Below are positions 1-62,945 of a DNA stretch of 64,000 nucleotides, in pieces. The notes under the pieces were generated by a model. It searched no databases, had not been told where the DNA came from, and saw nothing but the letters and a program-made list of their open reading frames with translations. Every line of letters begins with the position of its first letter. Positions within the stretch are counted from its first letter, which is position 1. Source of the DNA: an uncultured Alphaproteobacteria bacterium (GTDB lineage Bacteria; Pseudomonadota; Alphaproteobacteria; RF32; CAG-239); the NCBI GenBank assembly GCA_944391405.1, contig CALXTN010000005.1, positions 1,515 to 65,514 on the forward strand, given 5' to 3'. Position numbers and translations under genes: made by a program.

Positions 1-218
1 GTTTCTATACGATAAAGGTCGCCACCAATCTTTTCATGAATAGCTTCGGCAACTTCTTTTGTGTTACCTGACCATGAATAGTAGGCAATTAGGATTTTTT
101 TATTTGTGGTCATGTTGATATCCTTGTTTGGCTCAGCATTACTATTGGTTATGGTTAAAATGACAGTACTTAGTACGTAAAGTGATTTTTTTATTATATT
201 CAGTATTTTATTTCTCAT
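1..218 (-). CDS. Flavodoxin-family protein with an N-terminal signal-peptide-like segment, truncated at its 3' end by the window edge
   Basis: Minus-strand ORF MRNKILNIIKKSLYVLSTVILTITNSNAEPNKDINMTTNKKILIAYYSWSGNTKEVAEAIHEKIGGDLYRIET. It carries the flavodoxin signature YSWSGNT..A. RBS AAGGAGAG lies just upstream of the ATG at 218, and an alternative internal ATG is at 113. It is absent from the ORF track because it runs off the window. Confidence 0.5.
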   Translation of the reverse strand, partial: MRNKILNIIKKSLYVLSTVILTITNSNAEPNKDINMTTNKKILIAYYSWSGNTKEVAEAIHEKIGGDLYRIE

Positions 219-308: not shown

Positions 309-1031
309 TTATTGATTAATTTTTTTTGAAAAATATAGTCCTACTTCAAATAACGCATATGTTGGGAGGGTTAACATTAGCTGGCTTACCACATCAGGTG
401 GAGTGAGAATGGCTGCTATAATCAGTATGAGCGTAAATATATAAGGGCGTTTTGATTTGACTGTTTCATAAGAGCATATGCCTGATTTTATTAAAGAGTA
501 TGTGATTAGGGGAAATTGGAACATTAAGCCGAAGATTACGGAAAGCCATAAGCTTAATCCGATAACATTTGATATGCCTAGCGTTGCTTTTAGTTCTGAT
601 GTTGCAAAACTTGCTCCGAATTTGATGATTAAAGGAAGTATAAATGTAATGCAAAAGATTACACCAAGAATGAATAAGAAACTGGAACTTAAAACTATCT
701 TTTTTATGAACTGTTTTTCATTTTCATATAAAGCTGGAAGGATAAAATTCCACAATTGCCTTGCGATGTATGGGAAACAAAGCAATAAATCAAGTACAAG
801 TGCTAATTTAATTTGCAAAATGAAAACTTCGGCTGGGGAGAAAAAATTTAGTGTGACAGGTGTGTCTTGAATTAATTTTTGTATTAACCAATCCAAAAAA
901 TGCGGAGATGCAAATAAGGTTAAAGGAAGAATTATTCCTAGTGCGGTTAGGCAACGTAATAAGGTCTTTCGCAAAGCTTCTAAATGCGAAATTAAACTTT
1001 CTTCTTCTGAATTTTGTTTGTTTTCTTGCAT
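309..1031 (-). CDS. tatC: Twin-arginine translocase subunit TatC
   Basis: 240-aa polytopic membrane protein with the typical TatC length, hydrophobicity profile and sequence. The tatA stop abuts the tatC start. Confidence 0.9.
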   Translation of the reverse strand: MQENKQNSEEESLISHLEALRKTLLRCLTALGIILPLTLFASPHFLDWLIQKLIQDTPVTLNFFSPAEVFILQIKLALVLDLLLCFPYIARQLWNFILPALYENEKQFIKKIVLSSSFLFILGVIFCITFILPLIIKFGASFATSELKATLGISNVIGLSLWLSVIFGLMFQFPLITYSLIKSGICSYETVKSKRPYIFTLILIIAAILTPPDVVSQLMLTLPTYALFEVGLYFSKKINQ

Positions 1032-1247
1032 TTATTCTTTTTTGCTGTTTTTCTCTTCGTCTTGTTGGGCGACTTTTTCAATTGTTTCTTTTAAGTTATC
1101 TGCTTCGTTTTGAAGGGCTTCTTTAGCTTTTTTATATTCATAAGATGCTTTACCAAAGGCTTTGGCTAATTCTGGAATCCGTTTTCCGCCGAAGAGTAAT
1201 AATACGACAACTAGTATTAGTAAGAGTTCGCTTAATCCGATAGACAT
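1032..1247 (-). CDS. tatA: Twin-arginine translocase subunit TatA/E
   Basis: 71 aa: an N-terminal TM helix ([27 protein letters not shown]), then an amphipathic helix and an acidic tail. It sits immediately upstream of tatC. Confidence 0.9.
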
Positions 1248-1259
1248 ATTTGACTCCTT

Positions 1260-2579
1260 TTATTGTTTAAGTGTTTTTTGAAATTCGGTTGCATTAATTT
1301 TTATTGCTGATACGGGGCATACAGCTTGGCATGCTCCGCAGCCGATACATCTTTCAGTATCAATTTTTGGAAAATCTCCTTGCGCTTTGGTTATAGTGGA
1401 GCGAGGACATTCCATTACGCATAGTCCACATTGTATGCACGAATCGATATTAACTGAGGCTAAACCAATTTGCGTATGTTGTTTTTCTTTTAGAGTTAGT
1501 CTTTTTATAGCACCGCTGGGGCATACTTCAGAGCATTTGTGGCAATTGTAATCGCAAAAGCTTTTTTGGTATTTTAGATGTACAACTGGGAATTCATCGT
1601 TGGCTTTTTGAATTATTTTCATGGGACAGTTTGCAACGCATAAATTGCAATTTAGGCATTTATTGGCAAATGTTTTACTATCTCTTGCTCCAGGGGGAAG
1701 TAGAATATTTTTTAATCTTTTAGCAACGTTTTCGCCTAGTTTTATACTATTTTTGTAGGCGATTGTCAAAATTGCTAAAGCACCAGCACTGATTAGAAAA
1801 CGACGACGTCCAGTATTAATTGGTGTAGTTCCTCTTTGTTTTTTTTCTTTTTCAAAAGAAATTCCACTATTGTGGCAGAGACTTAAACAGCGAAAGCATT
1901 TTATGCATGTTTCATTATCAACGCTTTTATTTTTGAAATCAATACAATCTGCAGGGCATTTCTGAGTACAGAGACCACACGCGACACAGGCGTCTTTGTT
2001 TATGTTAATTTTGTATAAAGAGTGTTTTGCAATTATTCCCAAGATTGTACCGACAGGACAGATGTTTGTGCAGAAATATCTGCCCTTAAACCATGTTAAA
2101 AGCGCAATGACGGCTATCAGGGTTAATCCGTATGTGGCTCCACTGACTGCTGATCCAAAAATAGAATAAGGATCTATTAGGCGCATTAGGTATGCGGTTC
2201 CTCCTAATAGAGTACCTAATGTTAGTGCCGCTATGAAATATTTTAATGGCGAATTCTTTTGGGTGGGGTGTTTTTTACGATGGAAGATAAGCAAATATAA
2301 TTCTTGTAGTAGCCCGAGAGGACATATTGTGGAGCAGTATATTCTTCCAAAGAGAAAAGTTATAATGAGGAGGAGGGTAATTAGTATTCCTGACGATATG
2401 GTAAAAGTGGTGATAGAGCTCTGTATTAGAGGAGTAATATTTATATTAAATATTTTGATGGGATAAAATAACCCTAATAGTCCGCCGATGCTTATGATGG
2501 CCATCAGGAGGGCAATGGTTATCCTTGTTTTTTGAAGTGTTTTAGCTTTTAGCATCTTATTTTCCTCTTCTGTCGTCAT
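1260..2579 (-). CDS. Membrane polyferredoxin, NapH/MauN-like N-terminal half fused to a NapG-like multi-[4Fe-4S] half with an internal RRRF twin-arginine-like motif
   Basis: The N-terminal TM region carries two CxxxCP motifs (GRIYCSTICPLG, GRYFCTNICPVG). Six CxxCxxCxxxCP-type cluster motifs are present. TGRRRFLISAGALAILTIAYK lies mid-protein. Confidence 0.65.
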   Translation of the reverse strand: MTTEEENKMLKAKTLQKTRITIALLMAIISIGGLLGLFYPIKIFNINITPLIQSSITTFTISSGILITLLLIITFLFGRIYCSTICPLGLLQELYLLIFHRKKHPTQKNSPLKYFIAALTLGTLLGGTAYLMRLIDPYSIFGSAVSGATYGLTLIAVIALLTWFKGRYFCTNICPVGTILGIIAKHSLYKININKDACVACGLCTQKCPADCIDFKNKSVDNETCIKCFRCLSLCHNSGISFEKEKKQRGTTPINTGRRRFLISAGALAILTIAYKNSIKLGENVAKRLKNILLPPGARDSKTFANKCLNCNLCVANCPMKIIQKANDEFPVVHLKYQKSFCDYNCHKCSEVCPSGAIKRLTLKEKQHTQIGLASVNIDSCIQCGLCVMECPRSTITKAQGDFPKIDTERCIGCGACQAVCPVSAIKINATEFQKTLKQ

Positions 2580-2685: not shown

Positions 2686-3228
2686 TTATATGTTTTTGCC
2701 CATTTCGTAGGCTTCTTTTAGCGCAGGACTTCCTTTTATGTCTCCAATTTGCCAAGCGTCGGTTCCATAAATAACACCTTTTTCATGAGCGTTGTTTAGA
2801 CAGTCTTCAGTAAAACCGCGAAAACTTTCCAATACGCGTTCCATATTGGCTCGACTGTTGTCGGCAGCGGCTAAGATAAAGTAAAAATCTTTGTTGCTAA
2901 TTTCTTCATATCTTGGAACGGTTCTATCAATCAGGGTTTTCATTTGTCCGTTCATATTGTAAAAATAAACGGGTGTGCCCATGACAATTACGTCGGCATT
3001 TACCATTTTATCTAAAATTTTTACCATATCATCCTTTTGTACACATTTGTGGGTGGTGTTGCAAACCCCACATCCGCGGCAAAAATTTATTTGATAGTCG
3101 TTTACGTGTATTTTTTCTATATTATGACCTGCTTCTTTGGCTCCTTTTATGAATTCATCGCAAAGAACATCGGAATTTCCGCCTTTGCGAAAACTTGCAG
3201 ATAATACAAGAACGTTTTTGCTCATCAT
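2686..3228 (-). CDS. Iron-sulfur flavoprotein (Isf) / NADPH-dependent FMN reductase-like flavodoxin-fold protein
   Basis: Flavodoxin-like N-terminus (LVLSASFRKGGNS) plus the compact Cys motif CRGCGVCNTTHKC (C-x2-C-x2-C-x5-C) typical of the Isf family. Confidence 0.7.
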   Translation of the reverse strand: MMSKNVLVLSASFRKGGNSDVLCDEFIKGAKEAGHNIEKIHVNDYQINFCRGCGVCNTTHKCVQKDDMVKILDKMVNADVIVMGTPVYFYNMNGQMKTLIDRTVPRYEEISNKDFYFILAAADNSRANMERVLESFRGFTEDCLNNAHEKGVIYGTDAWQIGDIKGSPALKEAYEMGKNI

Positions 3229-3704
3229 TTATACTCCTCATTTGTTACAGGTTCTAACCATGTGGTTGTATTGTTGGGAACGTTGGTTTCAAGAGAAATG
3301 TGCGTAAACCAAGAATCTGGCGCTGCGCCATGCCAATGTTCAATGTTGGGGGCTATGCGAACTATGTCTCCTTTCTTTAAAATTTGTATTTTCCCATTCT
3401 TTTCTTGGTAGCGTCCCTCTCCATTTAAAATCAGTAAAATTTGTCCGCCACTGTGTTTATGCCAGTTAGTGCGTGCTCCAGGTTCAAAAGTGACGTTGCC
3501 TATCGGGGCGTTGAATGTGTCATCTTTTTTACTTAGCATATTTAAGTAGGTTTGTCCGGTAAAAAATTGTCCGTAAGGATTTTTCTCGCCTTGGGCAAAA
3601 ATGGTGTCTATTGGTGCTTTGTTCATTTCGGTGGCTCCTGTAATTGATGTTGTTAGGGTTAAAATAATTGTGCTTAGATATAAAATCAGTTTTTTTGATT
3701 TCAT
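3225..3704 (-). CDS. Secreted cupin-domain protein
   Basis: N-terminal signal peptide; cupin beta-barrel motifs (GARTNWHKH...G). Overlaps the Isf gene by 4 nt. Confidence 0.55.
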   Translation of the reverse strand: MKSKKLILYLSTIILTLTTSITGATEMNKAPIDTIFAQGEKNPYGQFFTGQTYLNMLSKKDDTFNAPIGNVTFEPGARTNWHKHSGGQILLILNGEGRYQEKNGKIQILKKGDIVRIAPNIEHWHGAAPDSWFTHISLETNVPNNTTTWLEPVTNEEYK

Positions 3705-3718
3705 GTATTTCCTCCTTG

Positions 3719-4843
3719 CTATTTTGATTTGGGGTGTATGGTTATTATGCTTATTTCACTAGGGGCTAAGAAGCGCATTTGTGGGCCCCATTGTCCGGCT
3801 CCATTTGATACGTAAATTTGTGCATTGTTATTCATTGTGTACAATCCGGATAAATATTTGTTTGCTAGCTTTACAAATATATGGAATGGGAAAATCTGTC
3901 CTCCGTGTGTATGACCAGAAATTTCTAGGTCAAAATTATTTTGCTTATCAAAATCTACAGGAGTGTGTGATATTAGTATTTTATATTGTGAGTTTGTACT
4001 GGTTTTGAAAGCGGTTGGCAAAGATATTGGTATTTGGTGTTGTTTAGCTGAAAACCAGTCAGGTATACCTGCTAAGTATATATTGGGAGTTATGTTTGTG
4101 CCGCTATTTTCTAAAAATGTAAATCCTAGTTTTTTTAATTCATTAGTTGTTTCTTGATAGCTGGTGTAGAATTCATGATTGCCAGTTACAAAATAAATTC
4201 CTTGTTTGGCTTTTAATTTACTTAAAAGTTGAGTGATAGATTGCACTTTGTTTACTTCATCATCAATAATGTCGCCTGCGAGGAGAATTATATCTGCGTT
4301 TTCTTGATTGGTTTTGTTTATGATATTCTCTATTTTTTGAGGATTTATGGTGCGGTGGATGTGTAAATCACTCAAAACGGCAATTTTGAGTGGTGTTATG
4401 ATTTTGTCACTGTATAGTGTTGATGTCTTAATCTCTGGTGTGGCAATTCCTTTTAGTAATGCGTATGTGGTAAGGATAATTGCTATTCCGAGGCTGATTA
4501 AACTGTTATTTAAATGGTATTCTTTTGCAAATGGGGATCCGATGTGTTGAGGCGATATTTTGTGTGCTATTAACCATAAGGTATCTCTGAATATAGATAA
4601 TGAAAATAAAATTATGCATCCAACATAGATATAGTATAGAGTATATCTGTAGATAGGGTAGAGATTTCCAAATAGATTTTCAAATTTGTAACTGACGAAA
4701 AGAGGAATGCAACCGAATAAGAGAGCAATGGTTAAAGATATAAATTTGTAAATTACCGGTGTATTGATAAAGAATATATAACGAAAATATAGCGATAATG
4801 TTACAATGCATCCTAGAAATGAAGTAGTTACGGCGCAGGTCAT
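3719..4843 (-). CDS. Membrane-anchored calcineurin-like metallophosphoesterase
   Basis: About 4 N-terminal TM helices, then the phosphoesterase motifs D-x-H, GDIIDD and GNHE. Confidence 0.75.
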   Translation of the reverse strand: MTCAVTTSFLGCIVTLSLYFRYIFFINTPVIYKFISLTIALLFGCIPLFVSYKFENLFGNLYPIYRYTLYYIYVGCIILFSLSIFRDTLWLIAHKISPQHIGSPFAKEYHLNNSLISLGIAIILTTYALLKGIATPEIKTSTLYSDKIITPLKIAVLSDLHIHRTINPQKIENIINKTNQENADIILLAGDIIDDEVNKVQSITQLLSKLKAKQGIYFVTGNHEFYTSYQETTNELKKLGFTFLENSGTNITPNIYLAGIPDWFSAKQHQIPISLPTAFKTSTNSQYKILISHTPVDFDKQNNFDLEISGHTHGGQIFPFHIFVKLANKYLSGLYTMNNNAQIYVSNGAGQWGPQMRFLAPSEISIITIHPKSK

Positions 4844-5477: not shown

Positions 5478-5771
5478 TTAAATTATTCCTCTGATTGCAT
5501 CAAAAATGGGAGTGGTTAAATTGTTTCCATTATTGTTTTTGGTATGATATTTGGAAAGTAGTTGATAATAGTAGATTAGAGAGAATAAACGTACAGAACA
5601 TGTTAATCCCATTTGTGTATTTTTACGTGCATTGATCATTCCAATAAGGGTGTTTCTTTTTATGTTTTCTCTTTTACAGATATTATCAATGGCTTCCCAT
5701 TCTGCATTTGCTAATCGCATACTTGTTTTATGGTTATCAATAAAAATTACTTTACTGGATAATTCTGTCAT
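5478..5771 (-). CDS. RHH_4 ribbon-helix-helix domain protein (family often mis-annotated as aryl-sulfate sulfotransferase), paralog 1
   Basis: KTSMRLANAEWEAIDNICKRENIKRNTLIGMI...LGLTCSVRLFSLIYY matches the S-x-RL..W.A...I......L.....SSAIRVFVL.YY pattern of alphaproteobacterial RHH_4 proteins. Confidence 0.65.
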   Translation of the reverse strand: MTELSSKVIFIDNHKTSMRLANAEWEAIDNICKRENIKRNTLIGMINARKNTQMGLTCSVRLFSLIYYYQLLSKYHTKNNNGNNLTTPIFDAIRGII

Positions 5772-5932
5772 AATTTTCTCCTAAATTATAAATAATTATC
5801 TATTAATATAAAGTCTATGCGTAAAAATTCAATTAATATTTGTATTTTGTTAAAATAAAAAGGGGTGTTTTTTGCTAAGATAAAATTAATTTTTTTTTAT
5901 CATTATAATTATGGATAGTTGATGAGGTTGTA

Positions 5933-7315
5933 ATGTTTTTTAGGTTTATTGTTTGTTTAATTGTCTATTTTAATATAAACTTGTGTTATGCTCAATATGA
6001 GCGGCCAGGATGGTTTTTGTCTGATGAAATAACAGAAAATGTAGGGGTGAATAAAAAAGTAAAAAATGCAGATGAGATATATGGTGAAACAGGGAAATCT
6101 TTGTTAAATAATGTTAAAAATCATAATTTTAAAAAGAAACAGCCACAATCTATTGAAATAATAGACAGAGGTTTTTCTTTAGGAAGGAAAGAGCTTAAAT
6201 TAACATCTATTTTGCTTAAAAATGTTTATGAAGATAATATGGGAAAAAATTTTGTCTTTTCTCCATTATCTTTTTACGCAGTTGCTGTTTTGTTAGCAAA
6301 TGGTGTTGTTGATTCAACATTGTGGGAGTTTTCGAAAATTTTTTCTGTGTTTCGTTTAGTTGATGTTAATGAGGTGTTTAAAAAGTATTTGTACTCTAAA
6401 GGAGAATCTTACATTTGGAGTATTTCTTTGTGGGGAAATGTTTTTAGTCAGAGATATCGAACATTGATAGGTGATATTTTGAGTGCAGAAACTTGGAATT
6501 TACAAGGTAATACTAATACTCTTAATATGTGGATTAGTGAAAAAACAAAAGGTAAAGTTAACAAAATTATTGAAGAACGCCCGGTTAACGATGATGAACT
6601 TTTTGTTGTTTCCTCGTTAGGCTTTTATCAAAACTGGAAATATCCATTTAATAAAAATTTTACTAGAAAAAAGATTTTTTATGCAGTTGATGGTAAAAGA
6701 ACTATGGTTAATATGATGTATCAAAGTGGTATATTTGAATATTTTGAAAATGATTTTATGCAAGTTGTTCGCTTATTTTTTGACACAGGCGACTATATTA
6801 CCTTCTATCTTCCTCATGAAAATTCAGATTTTAGTAAGTTTGTTGCCAATTTTGAGGATTATAAAATGGAGCCAGAATTTCAATATTGTAAAGTTGATTT
6901 ATTTATACCAAAGTTTCAATTGTCTAATAATGCTAATAATATTCGTGAAAAATTTGCACTTCTGGGAGTGAGCGAAGTTTTTTATTCTATTTATAATTTT
7001 GCTAAAATGATTAATTTTGATATGCAAGCTAAAGTATCAGATGTTTTTTTGAATGTTCGTGTAAGAATTGACGAAGGGAATGAGCAAAAAATATTGAAGG
7101 ATTCTTTTATTAAAGGAAATTTAGAAAACAATATATCTGTTATTTTTAATGCTAATAGACCTTTTATTTTTATGATTAATAAAGGTGATATTGTTGGTGG
7201 TTTTGTTAAGGGTAATAAATTAAATCTTGACGAATTAGTTGAAAATAATGATGAGAAAGTAGGTGAAGTTATTATTAGAAAAGATGAAACTTCTACTTGG
7301 TATGATAATAAGTAG
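5933..7315 (+). CDS. Secreted serpin (serine protease inhibitor family) with a non-canonical hinge
   Basis: Signal peptide; NFVFSPLSFYAVAVLLANG N-terminal serpin motif; a C-terminal FNANRPFIFMI that fits the PROSITE serpin signature exactly. The RCL region RIDEGNEQKILKDSF lacks an Ala-rich hinge. Confidence 0.85.
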   Translation: MFFRFIVCLIVYFNINLCYAQYERPGWFLSDEITENVGVNKKVKNADEIYGETGKSLLNNVKNHNFKKKQPQSIEIIDRGFSLGRKELKLTSILLKNVYEDNMGKNFVFSPLSFYAVAVLLANGVVDSTLWEFSKIFSVFRLVDVNEVFKKYLYSKGESYIWSISLWGNVFSQRYRTLIGDILSAETWNLQGNTNTLNMWISEKTKGKVNKIIEERPVNDDELFVVSSLGFYQNWKYPFNKNFTRKKIFYAVDGKRTMVNMMYQSGIFEYFENDFMQVVRLFFDTGDYITFYLPHENSDFSKFVANFEDYKMEPEFQYCKVDLFIPKFQLSNNANNIREKFALLGVSEVFYSIYNFAKMINFDMQAKVSDVFLNVRVRIDEGNEQKILKDSFIKGNLENNISVIFNANRPFIFMINKGDIVGGFVKGNKLNLDELVENNDEKVGEVIIRKDETSTWYDNK

Positions 7316-7342
7316 TTATTTATTATCATGGGGAATGAAATT

Positions 7343-7630
7343 TTAAATTATTCCTTTTATAGCATCACACATTGGTGAGGTACGATTACTGTTTTTGTGA
7401 TCAAGTTGGTACTGCAGAGCTTTTCTGTAGTAAATTAAAGAAAATAATCTGACTGATGATGTTAGCCCTAATTTATCATCTTTGTTGGCTTGTATTAATT
7501 CAAATAAATTTTTTCTTTTAATGTTTTCTCTTTTACAGATTGTATCAATTGCTTTCCACTCAGCTGGAGCTAGACGCATGCTTGTTTTGCGGTTATATAT
7601 CGAAACGACGCGATTTGATAATGATGCCAT
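7343..7630 (-). CDS. RHH_4 ribbon-helix-helix domain protein, paralog 2
   Basis: About 55% identical to the 5478..5771 product (KTSMRLAPAEWKAIDTICKRENIKRKNLFELI...LGLTSSVRLFSLIYY). RBS GGAGG. Confidence 0.65.
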   Translation of the reverse strand: MASLSNRVVSIYNRKTSMRLAPAEWKAIDTICKRENIKRKNLFELIQANKDDKLGLTSSVRLFSLIYYRKALQYQLDHKNSNRTSPMCDAIKGII

Positions 7631-39569: not shown

Positions 39570-40601
39570 GTGTTGAAATTTTTCGTTGTTATGACATTAT
39601 TTTTTATTTTGTCAGGTAATGTAACGGCTAAACCTCTTTTTGAGGCTGATGTTAATGTTGATATAACAGCTGAAAATGTGGTGGAAGCTAAAAAGCAAGC
39701 TATGGCTAAGGCTAGAAGAGATGCTTTAAATGATGTTTTGCTTAGTGTTAGTACAGCTCAAAGTGTTGAAGAATTAGCTAAATTGAATGATAATCAAATT
39801 CAGCATTTTATCTCTGGTGTTATGGTTTTAATGGAGAAATCTTCAAATGTTCGTTATATCGCGGATTTGCGTGTTACCATTAATGAAGATGTATTAAAGG
39901 CGTATATGGCAGAGAATAATTTGCCGTTGGTTGTGGGTGAAGAGCAAACAGTTTTGGTTATTCCTTTGCTGGAGAAAAATGATGGTTCGCTTGATTTGTG
40001 GAGTGACGCTAATTTTTGGCGGCAGGTTTTTACAGATAGAAAAGATATTCGCAAAGGAAACCTTATTCTTCATGATATAGATAAAAATTTGGGAAATATT
40101 ACAGCTGTTGAGGCTAATCGTATTTATGATATGTCAGATGCTGAATTTGCTGATGTGTCTGGTTTTAATAATGTTGAAGAAGTTTATGTCTTAAAATACT
40201 CGCTTAAAGATGGTAAAGTTTATGTCAAATCGTTTCCAACTCGTGAAGTGAATGGAGTTGTTATCGGTGACGCAACGCCTCAAGATATGATTGAAGCGGT
40301 ATTGCCGTTTTTTAAAGATGTGAAAAAAGCAGCTAAACTTGAAAATTTAGATGATAATGCAGAATTTGTTAATCAAAAGATAGAAGCAGTTTATTCTTAC
40401 TCTAAACTTAGTGAATGGTTATCTTTGAAACGCTTTTTGGAGACAAATTCTCAAGTTAAAGATGTTAAGGTTGTTTCTATGGCTAACGGCAAGGTGCATT
40501 TTAGCTTTATTTATAATGGTGTTTGGGAAAAGTTGCAGGCAAATTTGGCTTTGAGTGGCTATAAAATGAGAAATGAAGGAGGGTATTATGCCATCAACTA
40601 A
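39570..40601 (+). CDS. Secreted DUF2066-like protein
   Basis: Signal peptide; 343 aa. Family assignment is from memory of the DUF2066 / AI-2E gene pairing and is tentative. Confidence 0.4.
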   Translation: MLKFFVVMTLFFILSGNVTAKPLFEADVNVDITAENVVEAKKQAMAKARRDALNDVLLSVSTAQSVEELAKLNDNQIQHFISGVMVLMEKSSNVRYIADLRVTINEDVLKAYMAENNLPLVVGEEQTVLVIPLLEKNDGSLDLWSDANFWRQVFTDRKDIRKGNLILHDIDKNLGNITAVEANRIYDMSDAEFADVSGFNNVEEVYVLKYSLKDGKVYVKSFPTREVNGVVIGDATPQDMIEAVLPFFKDVKKAAKLENLDDNAEFVNQKIEAVYSYSKLSEWLSLKRFLETNSQVKDVKVVSMANGKVHFSFIYNGVWEKLQANLALSGYKMRNEGGYYAIN

Positions 40602-53200: not shown

Positions 53201-54919
53201 TTAGAAAAAATCTACAATGTTCTTGTATTTTTTCAATCCTAATTTTTTATGGGTATTGGCTATGTACTCATGCAAGTCATTCCATGTTGTATTTTCTTCT
53301 ATATATTGACGGGCTTTTTGAGGGGATTTGGATAATTGTATCTCAATTACTTGCGTTAATAAATCATACATGGCAGGGCTTACTTTGGCAAAGTCAATGT
53401 GGATTAATTTGTTTTCATCAAGAGTGATAGCTTTGTGTTGTAATAGAGTATTGAATTCTATTAAATCCACAATTTTGTATGTTTCTGTTGGAAATATTGG
53501 TTTTGCTCGTAATAGTAAGCGGAAAATCCATGTGGTATAAATTTCTTTTAATTCTTCTTCTGTGATGATGCCTTGTTTAACGTATTCTGGCATGAATGAA
53601 ATTGATACTGTATCCGCTTTGTTTTCTTCAATAATTGATTTGCAAATACCAGGGGCATTTTGATATTCGCTGTTCGGTCCTAAAGAGTGTCCGTTTTCAT
53701 GACCGATTACGAATAGATGGTCTGCTTCTAAGTTATAATATTTGTGGTAATCTGGATGTAAAAACGCATTTAGCATTTTTTGTGTTCTTTCCGGATCGTG
53801 ACTTTGTCTTACTTGACGATGGTATACGTTGCGTCTTCCTCCGCCGGTTTTGATTGATAATTTATCATTGTTGGGAAGGTTTTGGGCTACAGTCATGCCA
53901 CCACGACATTGTGCATAATCTCCGGTTAAGCTAATTAAATCAACATCAACCATGGTTTGTTTTAATTCAGTATTGGTGCTGATGGTTTGGGTGTATTGGC
54001 TGGCATGAGGCATTAAAGAACTTAATTTGGGCATCATGTTTTTGAATTTTAGGAGCAAATCTGTCCCCTTTTGGTTTACGATGCCAACACGAGCGCCTAG
54101 CATGTCTTTGGCAATGACTTCAATGTGCTTTTCAGCGATTAGTTGTGCCAATTCCGGATTTTCCAGAACGGTTGAGGTCATTTCATCATCATAATTTTCG
54201 CGACTTAATGTAAATTCTAGCGGTGTATCTTGCATCATAGCCCAATGTTTATCTGCAAGCATATCCATATCTTCGTTGTTTTGCAGTAAAGCTTGTGCTT
54301 GCCATGATAAATATTCTTTGAATAGGTTGTTAGTGCAATAATGAGCGGCGACTTCTAATTCATTGGCCATTTCTGAGAATTCTTGTTTGAAATATTCCGT
54401 ATAGTCAATCGCTTTTAATTCATCTTGTTCCCTTACAACCATAGTGCGTGCAGATAGAATTTGAGCTATTTCTTTGTCTTTTCCTTCTGCAAACATTTTT
54501 AATAAAATTTGGTGGAATTCGCTGACACTTAAATCTTGAGGATAGAAATTTTTTCCGGCAGGAGTTGTTAAACCTTTGAATATGGTAATTGGTTTCTCAT
54601 CAATGCCGTTCAGGCCACATACGCCGTTTAGAGAATTAAACATTTTTAAGGATAATGCTGCTTGTTCATCATTTGCAGCTTCTTTTTCAAGTGCTTTTTT
54701 TAATGAAATATTGTGCTGATTATCTTGTTGTAAGCTGACATTATTTAAAATTTTTGCAGCAGCTACTAAGTGTTGTAGTGCTTTTTTATCTCCTTCCTCT
54801 AGGGCTTGATATTGCACAGATTGCTCTGACAATAGGGTAATATCTGTCATTTCCTCTGTTGTCATTTTCTTGAGTTCATCAATGTTATAATTTAATTCAT
54901 AGCCATTATATGTTGTCAT
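53201..54919 (-). CDS. Zinc metallopeptidase, M49 (DPP III)-like, with HExxH pentapeptide and EENKAD second motif
   Basis: IGHENGHSLG followed 25 aa later by IEENKAD, resembling the M49 HExxGH...EExxAE pairing; 572 aa. Family assignment is tentative. Confidence 0.4.
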   Translation of the reverse strand: MTTYNGYELNYNIDELKKMTTEEMTDITLLSEQSVQYQALEEGDKKALQHLVAAAKILNNVSLQQDNQHNISLKKALEKEAANDEQAALSLKMFNSLNGVCGLNGIDEKPITIFKGLTTPAGKNFYPQDLSVSEFHQILLKMFAEGKDKEIAQILSARTMVVREQDELKAIDYTEYFKQEFSEMANELEVAAHYCTNNLFKEYLSWQAQALLQNNEDMDMLADKHWAMMQDTPLEFTLSRENYDDEMTSTVLENPELAQLIAEKHIEVIAKDMLGARVGIVNQKGTDLLLKFKNMMPKLSSLMPHASQYTQTISTNTELKQTMVDVDLISLTGDYAQCRGGMTVAQNLPNNDKLSIKTGGGRRNVYHRQVRQSHDPERTQKMLNAFLHPDYHKYYNLEADHLFVIGHENGHSLGPNSEYQNAPGICKSIIEENKADTVSISFMPEYVKQGIITEEELKEIYTTWIFRLLLRAKPIFPTETYKIVDLIEFNTLLQHKAITLDENKLIHIDFAKVSPAMYDLLTQVIEIQLSKSPQKARQYIEENTTWNDLHEYIANTHKKLGLKKYKNIVDFF

Positions 54920-56036
54920 TTAAGTTTATCTCCACTGTCTTAAATTTGTAGAATTTCATTTTAGGATTATGATAGTCAGGATTTATACCTGCTTGTTGTT
55001 TTATATAATGATAAATGTTTTCATCTTTGGCGTTTTCTTTTTTATATTTTTCTATTTCTTGAGGAAGTAAAATGTATTCACGTTGTTCAAAGCGAAATAA
55101 TAAGCCATCATTTGATAATATATTGTTCTGGTAAGGGATTTCTTGGAACGAAGTTAATAGGAATAATTTTTCTATTTTTTCTTGAGAGGTAAATTTGTGT
55201 AAACTTTTGCTAATGTTGTGAGCCAGAGATTTATTTGTATTTAAGGTGCAGATTTTTTTATTTGCAGAACATATACAAACAGCAGAATTTTTTAAAAGAA
55301 TATATTGAGCAGAAATTGGGTAATCTATTTTTGCATATGGGGTAGATGGAATGCGACTGAGAATTATATCTTTATGGTTTTCTATTAGTTTTTTTAGGTT
55401 TTCTTGTTCTTGCTCTTGTTGGTTTTGAGGTGAGGGGGAAAGTGGAGCAAAAAAATCTAAAAAAGTTTGAATTTCAGGTGTTATAACAAAGTCTTTTGGA
55501 TATGTGTAACTTATGGTATAAGGAATAAAATTTTTTGATTGAATTAGTTCTGGTATTTTATTTTCATCAGATACTACAATAAGTTGCGTTGATTTATTAT
55601 CTTGTTTTATTTGGGGAGAAAATATTTGTGCCAGTTTTAAAATCTTTTCAGAATCTGGGATTTCTGAGGAAATGTTGATTGTTGTTGCATTATTAGGTAT
55701 TAGGGAGAATGATTTTGCTAATGTAATCAGATTTTCTCTGCTGGAAAGATTGGAAATAAGAAAAATTATTTCTTCTTTTTTAGGGGTGCTCAGAATTGTT
55801 ATGGGGGTGGTTTGCGTATACCACTCTAGTGGTGTTGCTTGGAATTTATAGTTGATTAATTGTTTTTTTGTTTGATGCAAATTAATCGGAAATTGGATGA
55901 AATTGATTAAGATAATGAGTGTTATACTGATGATAAAAAGGATCCGTTTTATTTTTTTTTGACGTTCTTTCTTTTTATCTACGTACAGTAACATGGGAAA
56001 ATCTTTCGCTATTGTTTTTGCGGATGCAAGGCGCAT
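54906..56036 (-). CDS. Hypothetical single-pass membrane protein
   Basis: 376 aa; N-terminal basic stretch plus a TM helix; contains an A9 coding homopolymer at 55952..55960. Confidence 0.35.
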   Translation of the reverse strand: MRLASAKTIAKDFPMLLYVDKKKERQKKIKRILFIISITLIILINFIQFPINLHQTKKQLINYKFQATPLEWYTQTTPITILSTPKKEEIIFLISNLSSRENLITLAKSFSLIPNNATTINISSEIPDSEKILKLAQIFSPQIKQDNKSTQLIVVSDENKIPELIQSKNFIPYTISYTYPKDFVITPEIQTFLDFFAPLSPSPQNQQEQEQENLKKLIENHKDIILSRIPSTPYAKIDYPISAQYILLKNSAVCICSANKKICTLNTNKSLAHNISKSLHKFTSQEKIEKLFLLTSFQEIPYQNNILSNDGLLFRFEQREYILLPQEIEKYKKENAKDENIYHYIKQQAGINPDYHNPKMKFYKFKTVEINLNDNI

Positions 56037-59023: not shown

Positions 59024-59848
59024 ATGTGTTTTGAAAAAGCTAAGGAGTGGTTGGTTGAAGAATATAAAGCATATTATCAAAAAGCTACAGAGCATGCTCG
59101 GCAGGTAATGGATGAAAAAATGAAACACTCATATCAAGTTTTGGGTGTTGGTAATTATTTACTGAAACATGAAAAAGCTTTTCAGAATTATAGTCTAGCG
59201 GAGATTCAACGGTTAAAGGCGACCGTTTTGTTGCACGATTTAGGTCGTTTTTATGAAGTATTTTTACATGAAGATGGGGGAAAGGTTGATCATGGTGTTT
59301 ATGGTGCTTCTTTGTTAGCTGAAAATCCTGATTTTAATCACATTGAGATAATTCTTCCTATAAGACATCATGGACATTTAATTGAAAAACTTTATGAAGA
59401 TGCTGATTATTTAGAATTATCAGCAGAGGATCGACTAGAAATTCAGAAAATCATTTATTTGGTGCGCGATGCTGATAAAATAGCTAATTTTTATCTTTTG
59501 TCGCGGCATTTTAGGGAAATAGAAAATGTATTTTTTCTAAAGTCTTTATTAGATTCTCAAACAAGAATACCTAGTGCAATGGTTTGGAGTGCTTTTATAA
59601 AGCATTCAGCAGTTGATGTTAAATGTGTTAAAAGTTTTGCAGATCAAGCTATTATGTATATGGCTTGTATATATGATTTAGCTTATAAATCTTCATTTGT
59701 GTTGCTAGATAGATTAAATATTTTACCTAAATTAGTTGATTGTTTTAAAAAATTTATAGCAGATGATTATATGAATATTTGCCAAAAGGAGTTGACCGAT
59801 TATCAAAAGGCTCAGTTAAGTGGACAAAAAAACTTTTTTGAGTTTTAA
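59024..59848 (+). CDS. HD-domain phosphohydrolase
   Basis: LLHDLGR...DHGVYGA...RDADKI motifs; 274 aa. Confidence 0.55.
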   Translation: MCFEKAKEWLVEEYKAYYQKATEHARQVMDEKMKHSYQVLGVGNYLLKHEKAFQNYSLAEIQRLKATVLLHDLGRFYEVFLHEDGGKVDHGVYGASLLAENPDFNHIEIILPIRHHGHLIEKLYEDADYLELSAEDRLEIQKIIYLVRDADKIANFYLLSRHFREIENVFFLKSLLDSQTRIPSAMVWSAFIKHSAVDVKCVKSFADQAIMYMACIYDLAYKSSFVLLDRLNILPKLVDCFKKFIADDYMNICQKELTDYQKAQLSGQKNFFEF

Positions 59849-59909
59849 GATGTTCTTAAGGCTTTTAGTGTATCTTTTAGATTATATAGATGTTAGTTTA
59901 GAGGGTAAA

Positions 59910-62900
59910 ATGAAAGTTTTTGGTCTTTGGGTAGGATGCTTGTTTTTTGTAGTAAGTTCTGCGTCAGCTCAAGGGATTGTTGAGTCTCGATCAAATGGTA
60001 ATTCGGCTTATAATATAAATGTTATTTCTGAAGAAGAGTATAATCAAAATATTACAGGAAATGTTTATAAAGTATATGAATTTGATGGAGCTTCTTCTCT
60101 TGTTCCTCAGTATTATCAATATAATGTAAATGAAAATAAAGAATATGAAAATGTAATTACGCAGACTGGATATGGAAGCGGTAATGGGGTGAATCCAGAA
60201 GTCAATGTGGGTGTTGCTCTTAATAATAGTGAAAATATAGAGGGTATTTCTGGTACATTGTATGAGAATAATCATTATACTTATGATTTTGTAGGCGGTG
60301 ATGTTGACACCTATATTCGTGGTGGTGCTGTTTATAATAATGGTGTTATTGGGAATAAAGATGATAATGGACATTTTGTCGGTATTGCAATTGATGCAGA
60401 TTTTATTGGAAATACTTTGACTATACAAACGCAAAAGGACGGTTTGTTGCGTGCTCAAGGTGGTGCTTTAGCTAATCAAGGGGATATAGGTAATATTCAA
60501 GGTGATTTTATTAATAATAGTGCAAACGGAATGTTTGCTTGGGGCGGAGCTATTTATAATGATAAAATTGCAATGATAGGTGATGTTTATGGTGATTTTG
60601 TTGGTAATTTTGTAAATGGAGAAAGTTCTGGTGGCGGTGCTATTATTAATGAAGGCCAAATTGGAAATATGCACAGTGATTTCGTTGCCAATTATGCCGA
60701 GACGTCTAGCTATGCGGCGGGAGGTGCTATTCATAATGACGATAATGGCTATATTGCAGGAATTAATGGTAATTTTGTAGATAATCACGTAAAGGGGGGG
60801 GCTCAGGCTTATGGTGGAGCTATTGATAATTTCTTAGGTTCTATTGGTGATATAAATGGTGATTTTAATAATAATCGAGCAATTTCAACAGATTTAGGGC
60901 AATCTTTTGGTGCTTTTGGTGGTGCTATTTCTAATCAAGAAGGTTATTTTAGCAATGTAAATGGTAATTTTTATGGAAATCAAGCATCAGCAAAAGTTTA
61001 TGCTCAAGGTGGTGCTATTTTTAATTCATATGCTCGTATTGGAAATATACAAGGTGATTTTGTTCAGAATTCAGCTGTTTCTCAAGACGCAAGTGCTTAT
61101 GGGGGCGCAATTTATAATGAGGCTGCGGTTATTGATGGTATTAAAGGGGATTTTTCTGAAAATATTGTTTCGGCTAAATTGGAAGCTCTCGGTGGTGCTA
61201 TTTACAGTATGAATGGAACGGAAAGTAATAGTACGCTTAATTTAATTAATTCTAGTTTTTACAATAATTCTGCAGTTTCAGAGGATGGAATGGCGAAGGG
61301 TGGTGCTATTTATGCGGATAATCTTACTGTTACTGCTCAAGGGCAAAACAGTATTTTTCGTGGAAATATGGCAGATAATGTAAGCAATGCTATTTATATG
61401 GATGGGGCTACCAGTAATAAAAAAGCTGAATTGAATCTGATTACTAAGGAAGATGGGAATATTGTTTTTGATGATGCTATTGATGGAGAAAATTATAATT
61501 TAAATCTAGACAGTGATGGTTCTGGTGAAGTTATTTTTAATCATATTGTTGATCATGTTAGTAATTTTAATCTTTCAGATGTTTCAGCTGTTCATTTAGG
61601 TAAAGACGCTCAGATAAATATGCAAAATTATGTTGCGGATAATAAGAATGGTAGGCCTATTTTAACATTAGATGTTGAAGTAGATAAAAGTACGGGTAGC
61701 ATTAATAATGGTATTTTGAATATTAGTGGAGATGTTTCTGGTAAAACAAATGTTGTTGTTAACTCGCTTAATCAGGATATGTTGGACGATGTTACTAATG
61801 CTAAAACTATTTTCGTTCATGCGCCTAATGATGATATGAATACCGAATCTGTTTTTAATGTCAGCCGAGTTATTGGAAGCCCTTATATGTGGGATTCTAT
61901 TCGTAATTATGGAGGAGAAACAGAAGGAAGTAACTGGTATCTGGTTGTGCGTGATAATGGTAGTGGCGAAGGTGGTGGTGATGAAGATGGAAATGATAAT
62001 CCGCCAAGTGATGTTGTATATGCTCCAGAGATCCCTGCTTATGTAGGTATACAGACAGCTGTTGTTGAACAGAATCGTAATCTTGGGCGGAAAATTGCTG
62101 CGGGGTTACGTTCTGAGCAAAATAAAGGATGTTGTGACAGAAAATTTCAGCATGCATATAATATGTGGATTGATGCAGATTATGATAGTGCAAAAATTGA
62201 TGCTCCGGCTGATATGGATGCAAGTGTTCAGGGGGTAACTGCGGGAGTTGATTTTAAAACTGATAATTATAGTCGTTTGGGAGCTTTTGCTTCATATCGG
62301 AAAGGTGATTATGATTTGTCTGGGAAAGGAAAGTATGCTTCGGATTCAGGATCTTCGTTGGATGTAGATAGTTATTTAGGCGGTTTATATTATCATTATG
62401 GGCGTTATAATTGGAATATTTTAGCTACGTTATTTGGTGGAACTAATGATATTAATATTGAAACTGATGATAGAATTGTTTTTGCTGATACAAAAGGTAC
62501 GCAATATGGAGCTAGTGTTGAGGTGGCAAAGAAGTTTTATTTGCCGTATGCTTGGATTATTGAACCTAGTGCAAGTTTGTTCTATTCAGCTTTAGATTTG
62601 GATGGGTTTAGTGATAATATGGGGAAAAGTGTTGATTTTGATTTGATGCACTATATTGAAGCTGAACTGGGGTTGAGATTTGAGCATTTGTTTTGCTTAA
62701 ATGGGTGGACTACAAAAGTTTATGCTAAACCTTCTATTATTCAAACTTATGCTAGTGGCGATTCAGTCAATATTAGTGGCTTAAATGATATTTCTACCTA
62801 TGATAATCAGTTATTGGGGAAAATGGAGTTAGGGGCAAAGTTTGGCTTGTCTCGTACTCTATCAGCTTATGCTGCGGCTAATTATACGTTTGGTAGTAAT

Positions 62901-62945
62901 TATTCTGGATATGGTATTAATGCTGGATTAAATTACGCTTGGTGA
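59910..62945 (+). CDS. Autotransporter with a Pmp-type (GGAI / FxxN repeat) passenger domain and a C-terminal beta-barrel translocator
   Basis: Signal peptide MKVFGLWVGCLFFVVSSASAQG with RBS GAGGG. Over 12 GGAI(Y/F/H/I)N repeats alternate with (Q/N)GDF/FxxN. An acidic Gly-rich linker precedes a roughly 270-aa beta-domain ending ...GINAGLNYAW. Confidence 0.8.
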   Translation: MKVFGLWVGCLFFVVSSASAQGIVESRSNGNSAYNINVISEEEYNQNITGNVYKVYEFDGASSLVPQYYQYNVNENKEYENVITQTGYGSGNGVNPEVNVGVALNNSENIEGISGTLYENNHYTYDFVGGDVDTYIRGGAVYNNGVIGNKDDNGHFVGIAIDADFIGNTLTIQTQKDGLLRAQGGALANQGDIGNIQGDFINNSANGMFAWGGAIYNDKIAMIGDVYGDFVGNFVNGESSGGGAIINEGQIGNMHSDFVANYAETSSYAAGGAIHNDDNGYIAGINGNFVDNHVKGGAQAYGGAIDNFLGSIGDINGDFNNNRAISTDLGQSFGAFGGAISNQEGYFSNVNGNFYGNQASAKVYAQGGAIFNSYARIGNIQGDFVQNSAVSQDASAYGGAIYNEAAVIDGIKGDFSENIVSAKLEALGGAIYSMNGTESNSTLNLINSSFYNNSAVSEDGMAKGGAIYADNLTVTAQGQNSIFRGNMADNVSNAIYMDGATSNKKAELNLITKEDGNIVFDDAIDGENYNLNLDSDGSGEVIFNHIVDHVSNFNLSDVSAVHLGKDAQINMQNYVADNKNGRPILTLDVEVDKSTGSINNGILNISGDVSGKTNVVVNSLNQDMLDDVTNAKTIFVHAPNDDMNTESVFNVSRVIGSPYMWDSIRNYGGETEGSNWYLVVRDNGSGEGGGDEDGNDNPPSDVVYAPEIPAYVGIQTAVVEQNRNLGRKIAAGLRSEQNKGCCDRKFQHAYNMWIDADYDSAKIDAPADMDASVQGVTAGVDFKTDNYSRLGAFASYRKGDYDLSGKGKYASDSGSSLDVDSYLGGLYYHYGRYNWNILATLFGGTNDINIETDDRIVFADTKGTQYGASVEVAKKFYLPYAWIIEPSASLFYSALDLDGFSDNMGKSVDFDLMHYIEAELGLRFEHLFCLNGWTTKVYAKPSIIQTYASGDSVNISGLNDISTYDNQLLGKMELGAKFGLSRTLSAYAAANYTFGSNYSGYGINAGLNYAW
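60794..60801 (+). repeat. G8 homopolymeric tract inside the autotransporter coding sequence
   Basis: aaaGGGGGGGGctc encodes K-G-G-A in frame. A poly-G tract of this length is rare in a genome of this GC content. Confidence 0.6.

Follow-up and report, generated by a model that had tools for sequence, protein, structure and literature searches.

How would a membrane protein with predicted iron-sulfur clusters on both sides of the bilayer be assembled, which proteins would it exchange electrons with, and is it a coincidence that its gene directly precedes the genes of a protein translocase? These questions are raised by a locus at the beginning of a 64,000-nucleotide stretch of DNA (here called the window: positions 1,515 to 65,514 of contig CALXTN010000005.1, assembly GCA_944391405.1, from an uncultured Alphaproteobacteria bacterium), in which the gene of a polytopic polyferredoxin (PFD), a fusion of NapH-like and NapG-like parts with an internal twin-arginine (RR) segment, is followed by tatA and tatC of the twin-arginine translocation (Tat) system. 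On its sequence, the PFD of the window is a new, divergent member of a described and experimentally grounded family, and we consider it quite probable that it is a five-helix, seven-cluster membrane polyferredoxin that is assembled by Sec and then by Tat and acts as a transmembrane electron conduit. This architecture and the combined Sec/Tat insertion are already published for the family member Q1NSB0; the PFD protein alone thus adds little, its biogenesis question being answered in principle. What is worth following up is that PFD, tatA and tatC form a conserved operon, which is associated with a Tat-signal Fe-S aldo-keto reductase (AKR-FeS), an exported flavodoxin and genes for the nickel-pincer cofactor.

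PFD is a fused protein throughout its family

The initial annotation had listed a 439-aa protein under the span 1032-2579. An open reading frame (ORF) of this length does exist, but the span covers both PFD (1260-2579) and tatA (Table 1), and the PFD product is probably shorter: since homologues are mostly 423-432 aa long, alignments begin around query residue 4-10 and a Shine-Dalgarno (SD)-like GAGGAAAA precedes Met9, the true start is probably this codon (ATG at 2555), which would give a product of 431 aa. The division of the protein into two halves was confirmed by profile searches. Residues 51-248 match the NapH profile of NCBIfam (E=1.4e-27), and residues 254-429 match positions 7-206 of the NapG profile (E=3.9e-16); the latter match starts at residue 254 and therefore begins at the RR segment, at the place where NapG bears its own Tat signal. 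PFD scores far under the equivalog cut-offs of both families, with 96.5 bits versus 234 for NapH (NF007013 / TIGR02163), 92.3 versus 213 for the NapH/MauN subfamily model and 59 versus 269 for NapG (NF007012).

In the NapH-like half, a motif scan combined with the predicted topology places the CX3CP pairs C82/C86 and C170/C174 at the cytoplasmic ends of transmembrane (TM) helices TM2 and TM4, and the NapH profile match takes in the two-cluster ferredoxin domain (residues ~190-250) that follows them. The NapG-like half carries CxxCxxCxxxC motifs at 308, 381 and 411 and a Cx3CxxCx3C motif at 342. Cysteine motifs are thereby present for seven clusters, of which three, including that of the CX3CP pair, are predicted on the cytoplasmic side and four outside. 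Among the 28 motif cysteines, 21 never vary over 121 sequences, a set that takes in the Q1NSB0 subfamily at 26% identity, and the remaining 7 reach at least 90% conservation; the invariant ones comprise all four CX3CP cysteines and all eight of the cytoplasmic domain. Both halves, with two CX3CP and two 4Fe-4S motifs in one and four 4Fe-4S motifs in the other, had been recognized in the initial annotation, which had also named the case that homologues might keep them as separate genes, the fusion then being local. Instead, the fused protein was found throughout the homologues and in all genome loci. Each of the 120 top-ranking database homologues aligns with 78-100% of the query, 117 with at least 92%, and the length of 119 falls within 403-447 aa. 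Moreover, 867 clusters at 50% identity match PFD at E<=1e-30, and among the best 150 of their representatives 140 have at least 400 aa, 139 have two CX3CPxG motifs, and in at least 113 an internal RR and an ensuing hydrophobic stretch lie between Fe-S motifs. Identical or near-identical fused genes also occur on independent metagenome contigs, and a local fusion or sequencing artefact is ruled out by these contigs together with the large full-length family.

A scan of one genome per species gave 80 loci with the fused protein in every one, and the genome loci are labelled as uncultured gut Alphaproteobacteria or as Gastranaerophilales/Melainabacteria. A metagenome scan aimed at distant PFDs returned only the same gut/rumen subfamily and was used for the synteny count only. 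Several records with PFD carry odd labels, for example 'Limosilactobacillus gorillae', 'Muribaculaceae' and 'Acetobacter sp.'.

The RR segment precedes a weakly hydrophobic helix, as in a published Sec-Tat protein

The internal RR of PFD is not a chance occurrence, judged by its conservation. Three arginines stand at residues 258-260, inside TGRRRFLISAGALAILTIAYK (residues 256-276), and 59/59 close homologues have both R258 and R259; across the 121 sequences R259 is invariant and R258 at least 90% conserved. The RR is kept in 80/81 genome loci, the remaining locus reading KRKF. Five TM stretches were found, the four best hydrophobic 19-mers lying before residue 190 and one after the RR, and helices appear at 3-34, 48-77, 112-135, 137-165 and 256-277 in the AlphaFold2 models, which are of low confidence. 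The last of the five transmembrane domains (TMDs), TMD5, is the least hydrophobic in 75/79 loci; in the window its sum is +4.45 against -2.7 to +1.7 for TM1-4 on an approximate, position-independent scale. The 15 residues after TMD5 hold a median of 4 K/R across loci. In the window PFD there are 5 K/R within residues 276-295, and K276, K288 and K290 are almost invariant. At the end of the hydrophobic stretch of TMD5, residues 272-274 (window 1752-1760) read T-I-A and are followed by Y-K; this T-I-A could be a signal peptidase site, and it is not conserved in Gastranaerophilales.

The N-terminus, the TM2-3 loop and the segment after TM4 are K/R-rich, and these loop charges fit a topology with the N-terminus, the CX3CP motifs and the Fe-S domain inside, which is also the topology that Brondijk et al. 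(2004; cited in PMC5449189) reported for NapH of E. coli. The NapG-like domain is predicted on the periplasmic side from the RR signal-anchor and by analogy with the experiments on Q1NSB0.

These experiments come from a search for polytopic proteins with an internal Tat motif by Tooke, Babot, Chandra, Buchanan and Palmer (eLife 2017 6:e26577; PMC5449189). Their polytopic polyferredoxin, Q1NSB0 from delta proteobacterium MLMS-1, was termed a NapH-NapG fusion and has five TMDs, seven predicted 4Fe-4S clusters (three cytoplasmic, four outside) and an RR right before TMD5. When MBP or AmiA was placed after TMD5 of Q1NSB0, export occurred only in tat+ E. coli and only with an intact RR (PMC5449189). 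In the mechanism put forward there, the last TMD is too weakly hydrophobic and has positive charges after it, so that it is released by Sec and inserted by Tat. We took the Q1NSB0 fragment from the supplement of that study and recovered the full-length protein as P0121, which is 99% identical to the fragment. In a BLASTP comparison of the window PFD with P0121 (E=4e-35, 26% identity), residues 37-424 are collinear with 39-528, and both CX3CP motifs, all Fe-S motifs and the GRRR are in register (GRRRFL versus GRRRLL). Both sequence features described by Tooke et al., the weakly hydrophobic TMD5 and the positive charges after it, are found in the window PFD. Thus the two proteins share the NapH-NapG fusion, five TMDs, two CX3CP, two cytoplasmic and four external motifs, and G-RRR-[FL]L before TMD5. 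They differ in length: the long insertion that separates TM3 from TM4 in Q1NSB0 and a loop in the cytoplasmic ferredoxin domain are missing from the window PFD, which is ~110 residues shorter.

The initial annotation had proposed combined Sec/Tat insertion by comparison with the actinobacterial Rieske protein Sco2149. This proposal is supported by the published Q1NSB0 experiments, by collinear homology and by both of the sequence features just named, and the comparison is an established explanation and not mere analogy. In Sco2149, as in the haem-molybdenum cofactor (MoCo) protein Sco3746, the N-terminal TMDs are inserted by Sec, and a domain already loaded with its cofactor is passed to Tat by an internal RR that stands before the last, weakly hydrophobic TMD. 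Their folds and cofactors (2Fe-2S Rieske; haem b and MoCo) are unrelated to those of PFD, and no report of tat-gene linkage for either protein was found in the literature searched.

tatA and tatC follow PFD in most related loci

TatA and TatC of the window are genuine. TatC matches solved TatC structures (E=3e-36), and TatA scores 53.8 against a cut-off of 53.9 (TIGR01411), with TatB models scoring lower. No further tat gene was noticed in the window, although no systematic search for one was made. The gap between the PFD stop and tatA is 12 nt, and the TAA stop of tatA directly abuts the ATG of tatC. A palindromic hairpin with a T-run lies at 2650-2668, between PFD and the end (2686) of the upstream gene for an FMN_red-family flavoprotein, and probably terminates the latter gene. 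Given this tight packing and the hairpin upstream, PFD, tatA and tatC look like a single transcription unit.

To place this arrangement, ORFs were called in 81 genome loci and searched with the window proteins, and all neighbours were clustered. In 74/81 of these species-level loci tatC lies on the same strand just downstream of PFD, with tatA between the two; the median gap after PFD is ~16 nt (usually 10-30 nt), and between the tatA stop and the tatC start there are at most a few nt or a slight overlap. Among metagenome loci whose sequence continues for at least 1 kb downstream, tatC follows PFD in 49/63. The genes flanking PFD-tatA-tatC vary widely among loci. The adjacency, which had been suspected to be more than coincidence from the window alone, therefore recurs well beyond it and is not a matter of chance. 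Pairwise identities of PFD and TatC co-vary (r=0.855, 2556 pairs), and TatC identity between Alphaproteobacteria- and Gastranaerophilales-labelled loci is 49-68% (mean 57%), overlapping the within-group range (L004-L083 of our related loci). This overlap suggests horizontal transfer of PFD-tatAC as one unit or, alternatively, wrong labels on some bins.

The gene context of PFD is not discussed by Tooke et al. (PMC5449189), and our full-text literature searches found no report of PFD-tatAC linkage or of Tat in Gastranaerophilales, so the conserved PFD-tatA-tatC operon looks unreported.

Minimal TatAC systems with TatA and TatC in the absence of TatB are familiar from Gram-positive bacteria, e.g. 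phoD-tatAd-tatCd of Bacillus subtilis, where the operon also encodes a Tat substrate. In that case the substrate, a phosphodiesterase, is soluble, secreted and made with an N-terminal signal that is cleaved off, whereas PFD, from Alphaproteobacteria/Melainabacteria-labelled bacteria, is a polytopic Fe-S protein of the membrane whose signal-anchor is internal.

The gene order differs in the Q1NSB0 subfamily. We sampled five loci of this type, from Desulfurivibrio alkaliphilus, a Nitrospiraceae metagenome-assembled genome (MAG), a Dissulfurispiraceae MAG and two metagenome contigs. None has tat genes within 4-7 kb, in contrast to the operon with tatA-tatC of the gut subfamily, and in 5/5 a DUF362 gene lies 0-3.4 kb upstream of PFD. 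The DUF362 proteins translated from these loci (n=2) start with the twin-arginine signals MDRRNFLL and MKRREFLK, and DUF362 may represent a second class of exported PFD partner. The coordinates recorded for this type are L084 6055-6966, L085 6108-7001, L166 1-647, L167 2011-2910 and L168 1664-2566.

Exported redox proteins recur beside PFD

PFD had been described as an orphan with no napA or other catalytic subunit nearby, and a search of homologues and their neighbours had been proposed for finding its oxidoreductase. Scanned against Pfam, 27 of the larger ORFs of the window, including all of at least 600 aa, gave no molybdopterin or NapA-like protein and no other obvious catalytic subunit. 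However, PFD is an orphan only locally: a flavodoxin gene adjoins the set in the window, and a candidate partner, AKR-FeS, is present in most relatives though not beside the gene in the window itself.

AKR-FeS was found on the same strand in 62/81 loci. It is a protein of ~412 aa with an aldo/keto reductase domain; the N-terminus reads M-[NK]-RR-[ED]-F-[LI] in 55/60 full-length copies, and 57/60 have two C-terminal CxxCxxCxxxC motifs. A Flavodoxin_4 protein with a Sec-type signal peptide (Pfam, NCBIfam) occurs in 52/81 loci, and LarB, LarC and LarE in 42, 42 and 41 of the 81, with representatives above the NCBIfam cut-offs. A full larBCE set is present in 38 loci, and AKR-FeS is present in 38/38 of these. 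Rarer neighbours are CbiM, the FMN_red flavoprotein (24 loci, the window among them, with its gene immediately upstream of PFD) and DUF362 with a Tat signal (9 gut loci). No nap, nos or mau catalytic gene was found in the 27 scanned ORFs of the window or among the recurrent neighbours of PFD in 161 related loci. The order AKR-larB-larC-larE-(unannotated membrane protein)-PFD is kept even where tatAC is not adjacent. An extended example is L014 2043-10189, where AKR-FeS, the exported flavodoxin, LarB, LarC, LarE, an unannotated 6-TM protein, PFD and, as is usual, tatA-tatC are co-directional; the arrangement is also seen in L031, L041, L114, L123 and L131.

According to Semersky et al. (Nat Chem 2026, PMC13524815), the nickel-pincer nucleotide (NPMN) takes the place of NAD(P)H in aldo-keto reductases that are encoded beside larBCE, and one of these, NphT (PDB 9YEB), uses H144 and K200 for this nucleotide; that report makes no mention of Tat, Fe-S clusters or periplasm. 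In AKR-FeS, the position corresponding to S183-x-H185 is His in 59/60 copies, and the second residue of V/L240-K/R241 is K in 34 copies and R in 23. These motifs are spaced 58 residues apart, as T142 and K200 are in NphT (T142-x-H144 ... I199-K200). The match of AKR-FeS to 9YEB is weak (E=6e-4) and is lost with a sub-sequence query, and the His/Lys correspondence is by motif spacing only. AKR-FeS would be a candidate periplasmic nickel-pincer oxidoreductase. An aldo-keto reductase in the periplasm could not use NAD(P)H, we infer, and a pre-loaded hydride cofactor together with Tat export of the folded protein would therefore make sense. The set of exported redox neighbours points to a periplasmic redox module.

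Proposed assembly of PFD and alternative explanations

In our model, the NapH-like helices TM1-4 would be inserted co-translationally by Sec/YidC, a step that would leave the CX3CP cysteines and the 2x[4Fe-4S] domain in the cytoplasm. TMD5 would be too weakly hydrophobic, and followed by too many positive charges, for insertion by Sec, and the NapG-like domain would thus fold and take up its four clusters in the cytoplasm. The RR before TMD5 would then direct this domain to the TatA-TatC encoded just downstream, which would carry it across the membrane, TMD5 staying behind as an uncleaved signal-anchor. The finished PFD would link a cytoplasmic or membrane reductant to the exported redox proteins encoded beside it. 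The local donor would be either the FMN_red flavoprotein of the upstream gene or quinol; the exported partner would be the signal-peptide flavodoxin in the window and, in most relatives, also AKR-FeS with its two 4Fe-4S clusters. With AKR-FeS and larBCE not nearby, the exported flavodoxin is most likely the local electron acceptor, judging from gene content. The architecture, the homology to Q1NSB0 and the conservation of motifs and operon are shown by the sequences; that PFD uses its cognate TatAC, which way electrons flow and what serves as donor and acceptor are inferred.

Other NapH-like proteins provide precedents for such a role. NapH of E. coli and Wolinella succinogenes likewise has four TMs, with CX3CP and two 4Fe-4S clusters on the cytoplasmic side, and NapG is Tat-exported with four 4Fe-4S clusters, as predicted for the C-terminal half of PFD. 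NapH and NapG are, however, two polypeptides, with a cleaved N-terminal signal on NapG, encoded in nap operons and serving NapAB, whereas PFD is a single polypeptide with no nap genes at its locus and with scores far under the family cut-offs. A modular role in transmembrane electron transfer has been described for NapH-like proteins, NosR, PceC/RdhC and their relatives among them (Meheust et al. 2021, PMC8238504): a NapH-type membrane Fe-S core joins cell-internal electrons to extracytosolic redox enzymes. These proteins have an extracytosolic FMN-binding domain flavinylated by ApbE, whereas PFD has a four-cluster ferredoxin domain that is predicted to be exported by Tat; no ApbE was seen near PFD.

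Several explanations compete with this model. An A-x-A-type site ends TMD5 in the alphaproteobacterial clade (A at 272 in 50/59, A at 274 in 56/59), and if signal peptidase I cut there after Tat export, PFD would be a polyprotein that frees a soluble periplasmic NapG-like ferredoxin, its products resembling separate NapH and NapG. However, the site is not family-wide: position -1 is Met in 19/72 genome loci, and a permissive -3/-1 rule fits 49/72. Moreover, Tooke et al. engineered a signal peptidase site after TMD5 to free AmiA, implying that the native Q1NSB0 segment is uncleaved (PMC5449189), and we regard cleavage as improbable. It is very unlikely that PFD is an ordinary NapGH quinol dehydrogenase, fused incidentally and serving a nitrate reductase or a Nos/Mau-type enzyme encoded elsewhere. 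Its best named NCBIfam matches are indeed NapH and NapG, and NapGH of E. coli and Wolinella are quinol dehydrogenases according to the account in PMC5449189; but its scores lie far below the equivalog cut-offs, no molybdoenzyme was found among the 27 scanned ORFs of the window, the conserved neighbours are AKR-FeS, flavodoxin, larBCE and tatAC and never nap genes, and the NrdD and Pta-AckA genes of the window indicate, as far as gene content can tell, a fermentative anaerobe. By the positive-inside rule alone, the charges after TMD5 would be placed in the cytoplasm, and one could suppose that the RR segment is no Tat signal, that the C-terminal ferredoxin domain is cytoplasmic and that the adjacency of tatAC is coincidental. 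Yet such charges are a documented Sec-avoidance feature of the dual Sec-Tat class (PMC5449189), the RR is conserved over the 121 sequences, the NapG profile match begins at this segment, which also aligns with the Tat-dependent motif of Q1NSB0, and the tatAC linkage is itself conserved; this last supposition is hardly credible.

A far more serious contender concerns the translocase and not PFD: tatAC may be a general-purpose Tat system, and its adjacency to PFD an inherited gene block with no special tie between substrate and translocase. The same loci encode other Tat-signal proteins (AKR-FeS in 62, DUF362 in 9), the RR is still kept in the 7/81 genome and 14/63 metagenome loci in which tatC is not adjacent, and the Tat system of E. 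coli handles the PFD Q1NSB0 (PMC5449189). On the other side, the triad is kept amid reshuffled flanks, at PFD identities as low as 41% and under two phylum labels, and the intergenic gaps suggest co-translation. We give this explanation a substantial chance, short of even; it touches exclusivity only and is compatible with PFD as a Tat substrate.

Several points weigh against the Sec-then-Tat conduit. Dependence on Tat and on the RR has been shown for Q1NSB0 only, and the window protein is known from its sequence. The hydrophobicity scale used for TMD5 is position-independent, with approximate values after Hessa et al. 2005, and differs from the delta-G predictor of Tooke et al. Two AlphaFold2 models of PFD reached a mean predicted local distance difference test (pLDDT) score of 54.6 for the first and 64.8 for the second, in which the NapH-like half scores ~75-90 and the NapG-like half <50; because of this low confidence we draw no structural argument on docking, cluster spacing or an electron path across the bilayer. 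Foldseek returned no PDB structure with a NapH-like membrane fold at E<=0.001, and a PDB sequence search with PFD gave generic ferredoxin domains only. AKR-FeS and larBCE are not nearby in the window and in its ten closest species-level relatives (L004-L013), which leaves the local acceptor uncertain. Finally, a second tat locus, tatB or many other Tat substrates may lie outside the stretches examined.

A wider reading, which we offer tentatively and rate slightly below a general-purpose Tat system, is that PFD-TatA-TatC would supply the membrane and export functions at the heart of a hitherto undescribed periplasmic redox module in gut anaerobes. A minimal Tat system would be kept, and horizontally moved, with its principal clients PFD and the probable nickel-pincer enzyme AKR-FeS, whose cofactor would be made by LarBCE, and the exported flavodoxin would complete the chain. 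If this is true, AKR-FeS would be the first nickel-pincer enzyme outside the cytoplasm, wired to cell-internal reductant via an Fe-S conduit, the operon would be the first of a Tat system to be centred on a polytopic membrane substrate, and the module would have been reduced to PFD, TatAC and flavodoxin in the clade of the window. The operon context may in any case add more than the protein, since it keeps a Tat translocase and a dual Sec-Tat membrane substrate within a shared transcription unit in two gut lineages. It offers a natural system for asking whether minimal TatAC co-evolve with particular, difficult substrates, which electron targets NapH-type conduits have in fermentative gut bacteria, and whether nickel-pincer chemistry takes place in the periplasm.

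Other features of the window

The features of the locus are collected in Table 1. The local set consists of a MerR-family regulator, a polytopic metallophosphoesterase, the signal-peptide cupin, the FMN_red flavoprotein, PFD-tatA-tatC and the signal-peptide flavodoxin. The flavodoxin gene begins 90 nt past tatC, with its own promoter-like site and SD sequence and with its codons at 218-3.

Table 1. Coordinates, in window positions, of the PFD gene, its domains and the neighbouring genes
Feature	Position	Strand	Residues or length	Basis and remarks
Flavodoxin-like protein (Flavodoxin_4), Sec-type signal peptide	1..218	-	first 72 codons	tblastn with flavodoxin-cluster proteins from related loci; runs off window edge
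tatC	309..1031	-	240 aa	PF00902 E=1e-54; TIGR00945 165.6 bits versus 132.7 cut-off
tatA	1032..1247	-	71 aa	PF02416 E=5e-15; AAGGAG Shine-Dalgarno; TatA/E family models top-scoring
PFD (polytopic polyferredoxin, NapH-NapG fusion)	1260..2579	-	439-aa longest ORF	Fer4_5 x2 and Fer4 Pfam families; NapH/NapG NCBIfam partial matches
NapG-like domain of PFD	1290..1697	-	~295-430	four 4Fe-4S motifs; NapG profile; predicted periplasmic
Internal twin-arginine signal-anchor of PFD	1752..1814	-	256-276	T-G-R258-R259-R260-F-L and TMD5, then K/R-rich stretch
Cytoplasmic 2x[4Fe-4S] ferredoxin domain of PFD	1830..2012	-	~190-250	CxxCxxCxxxC at 198, 225
NapH-like membrane part of PFD	2025..2525	-	~19-185	four TM helices, two CX3CP motifs (82, 170)
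FMN_red-family flavoprotein, cytoplasmic	2686..3228	-		CxxCxxCx5C; PF03358 E=8e-24; candidate electron donor
Cupin-fold protein, Sec-type signal peptide	3225..3704	-		PF07883; NF049940 just under cut-off

The compact CxxCxxCx5C motif of the FMN_red protein resembles those of iron-sulfur flavoproteins. The cupin gene overlaps the FMN_red gene by 4 nt, and its product scores 129.9 bits against the 140-bit cut-off for (R)-mandelonitrile lyase.

A scan for RR followed by a hydrophobic stretch in all frames revealed no other Tat-type signal in the window. The metallophosphoesterase (3719-4843, minus strand) was considered as a member of the YkuE-like dual-targeted family of Tooke et al. and rejected, since it lacks an RR and no conserved RR precedes the last TM in its relatives. 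It is YaeI/LpxG-like with four predicted TMs and recurs beside the PFD module, directly after tatC in L027, L028 and L046 and directly after PFD in L112-L116.

Elsewhere the window carries the housekeeping genes of an anaerobe, among them those for NrdD, Pta-AckA, PntAB, GyrB and tRNA synthetases, and Rfam finds one tRNA only. The intervals 59820-62945 (+), 53201-56036 (-) and 39570-40601 (+) hold a 1041-aa autotransporter and ORFs of 572, 376 and 343 aa that have no Pfam match at E<=1e-5. At 5478-7630, a gene for a 460-aa serpin (5933-7315, plus strand) lies between paralogous small RHH_4 (PF13467) genes at 5478-5771 and 7343-7630, both on the minus strand. This region has 26-29% GC versus 33-38% in the neighbouring sequence, and the same arrangement is found in the related contigs L001 and L002.

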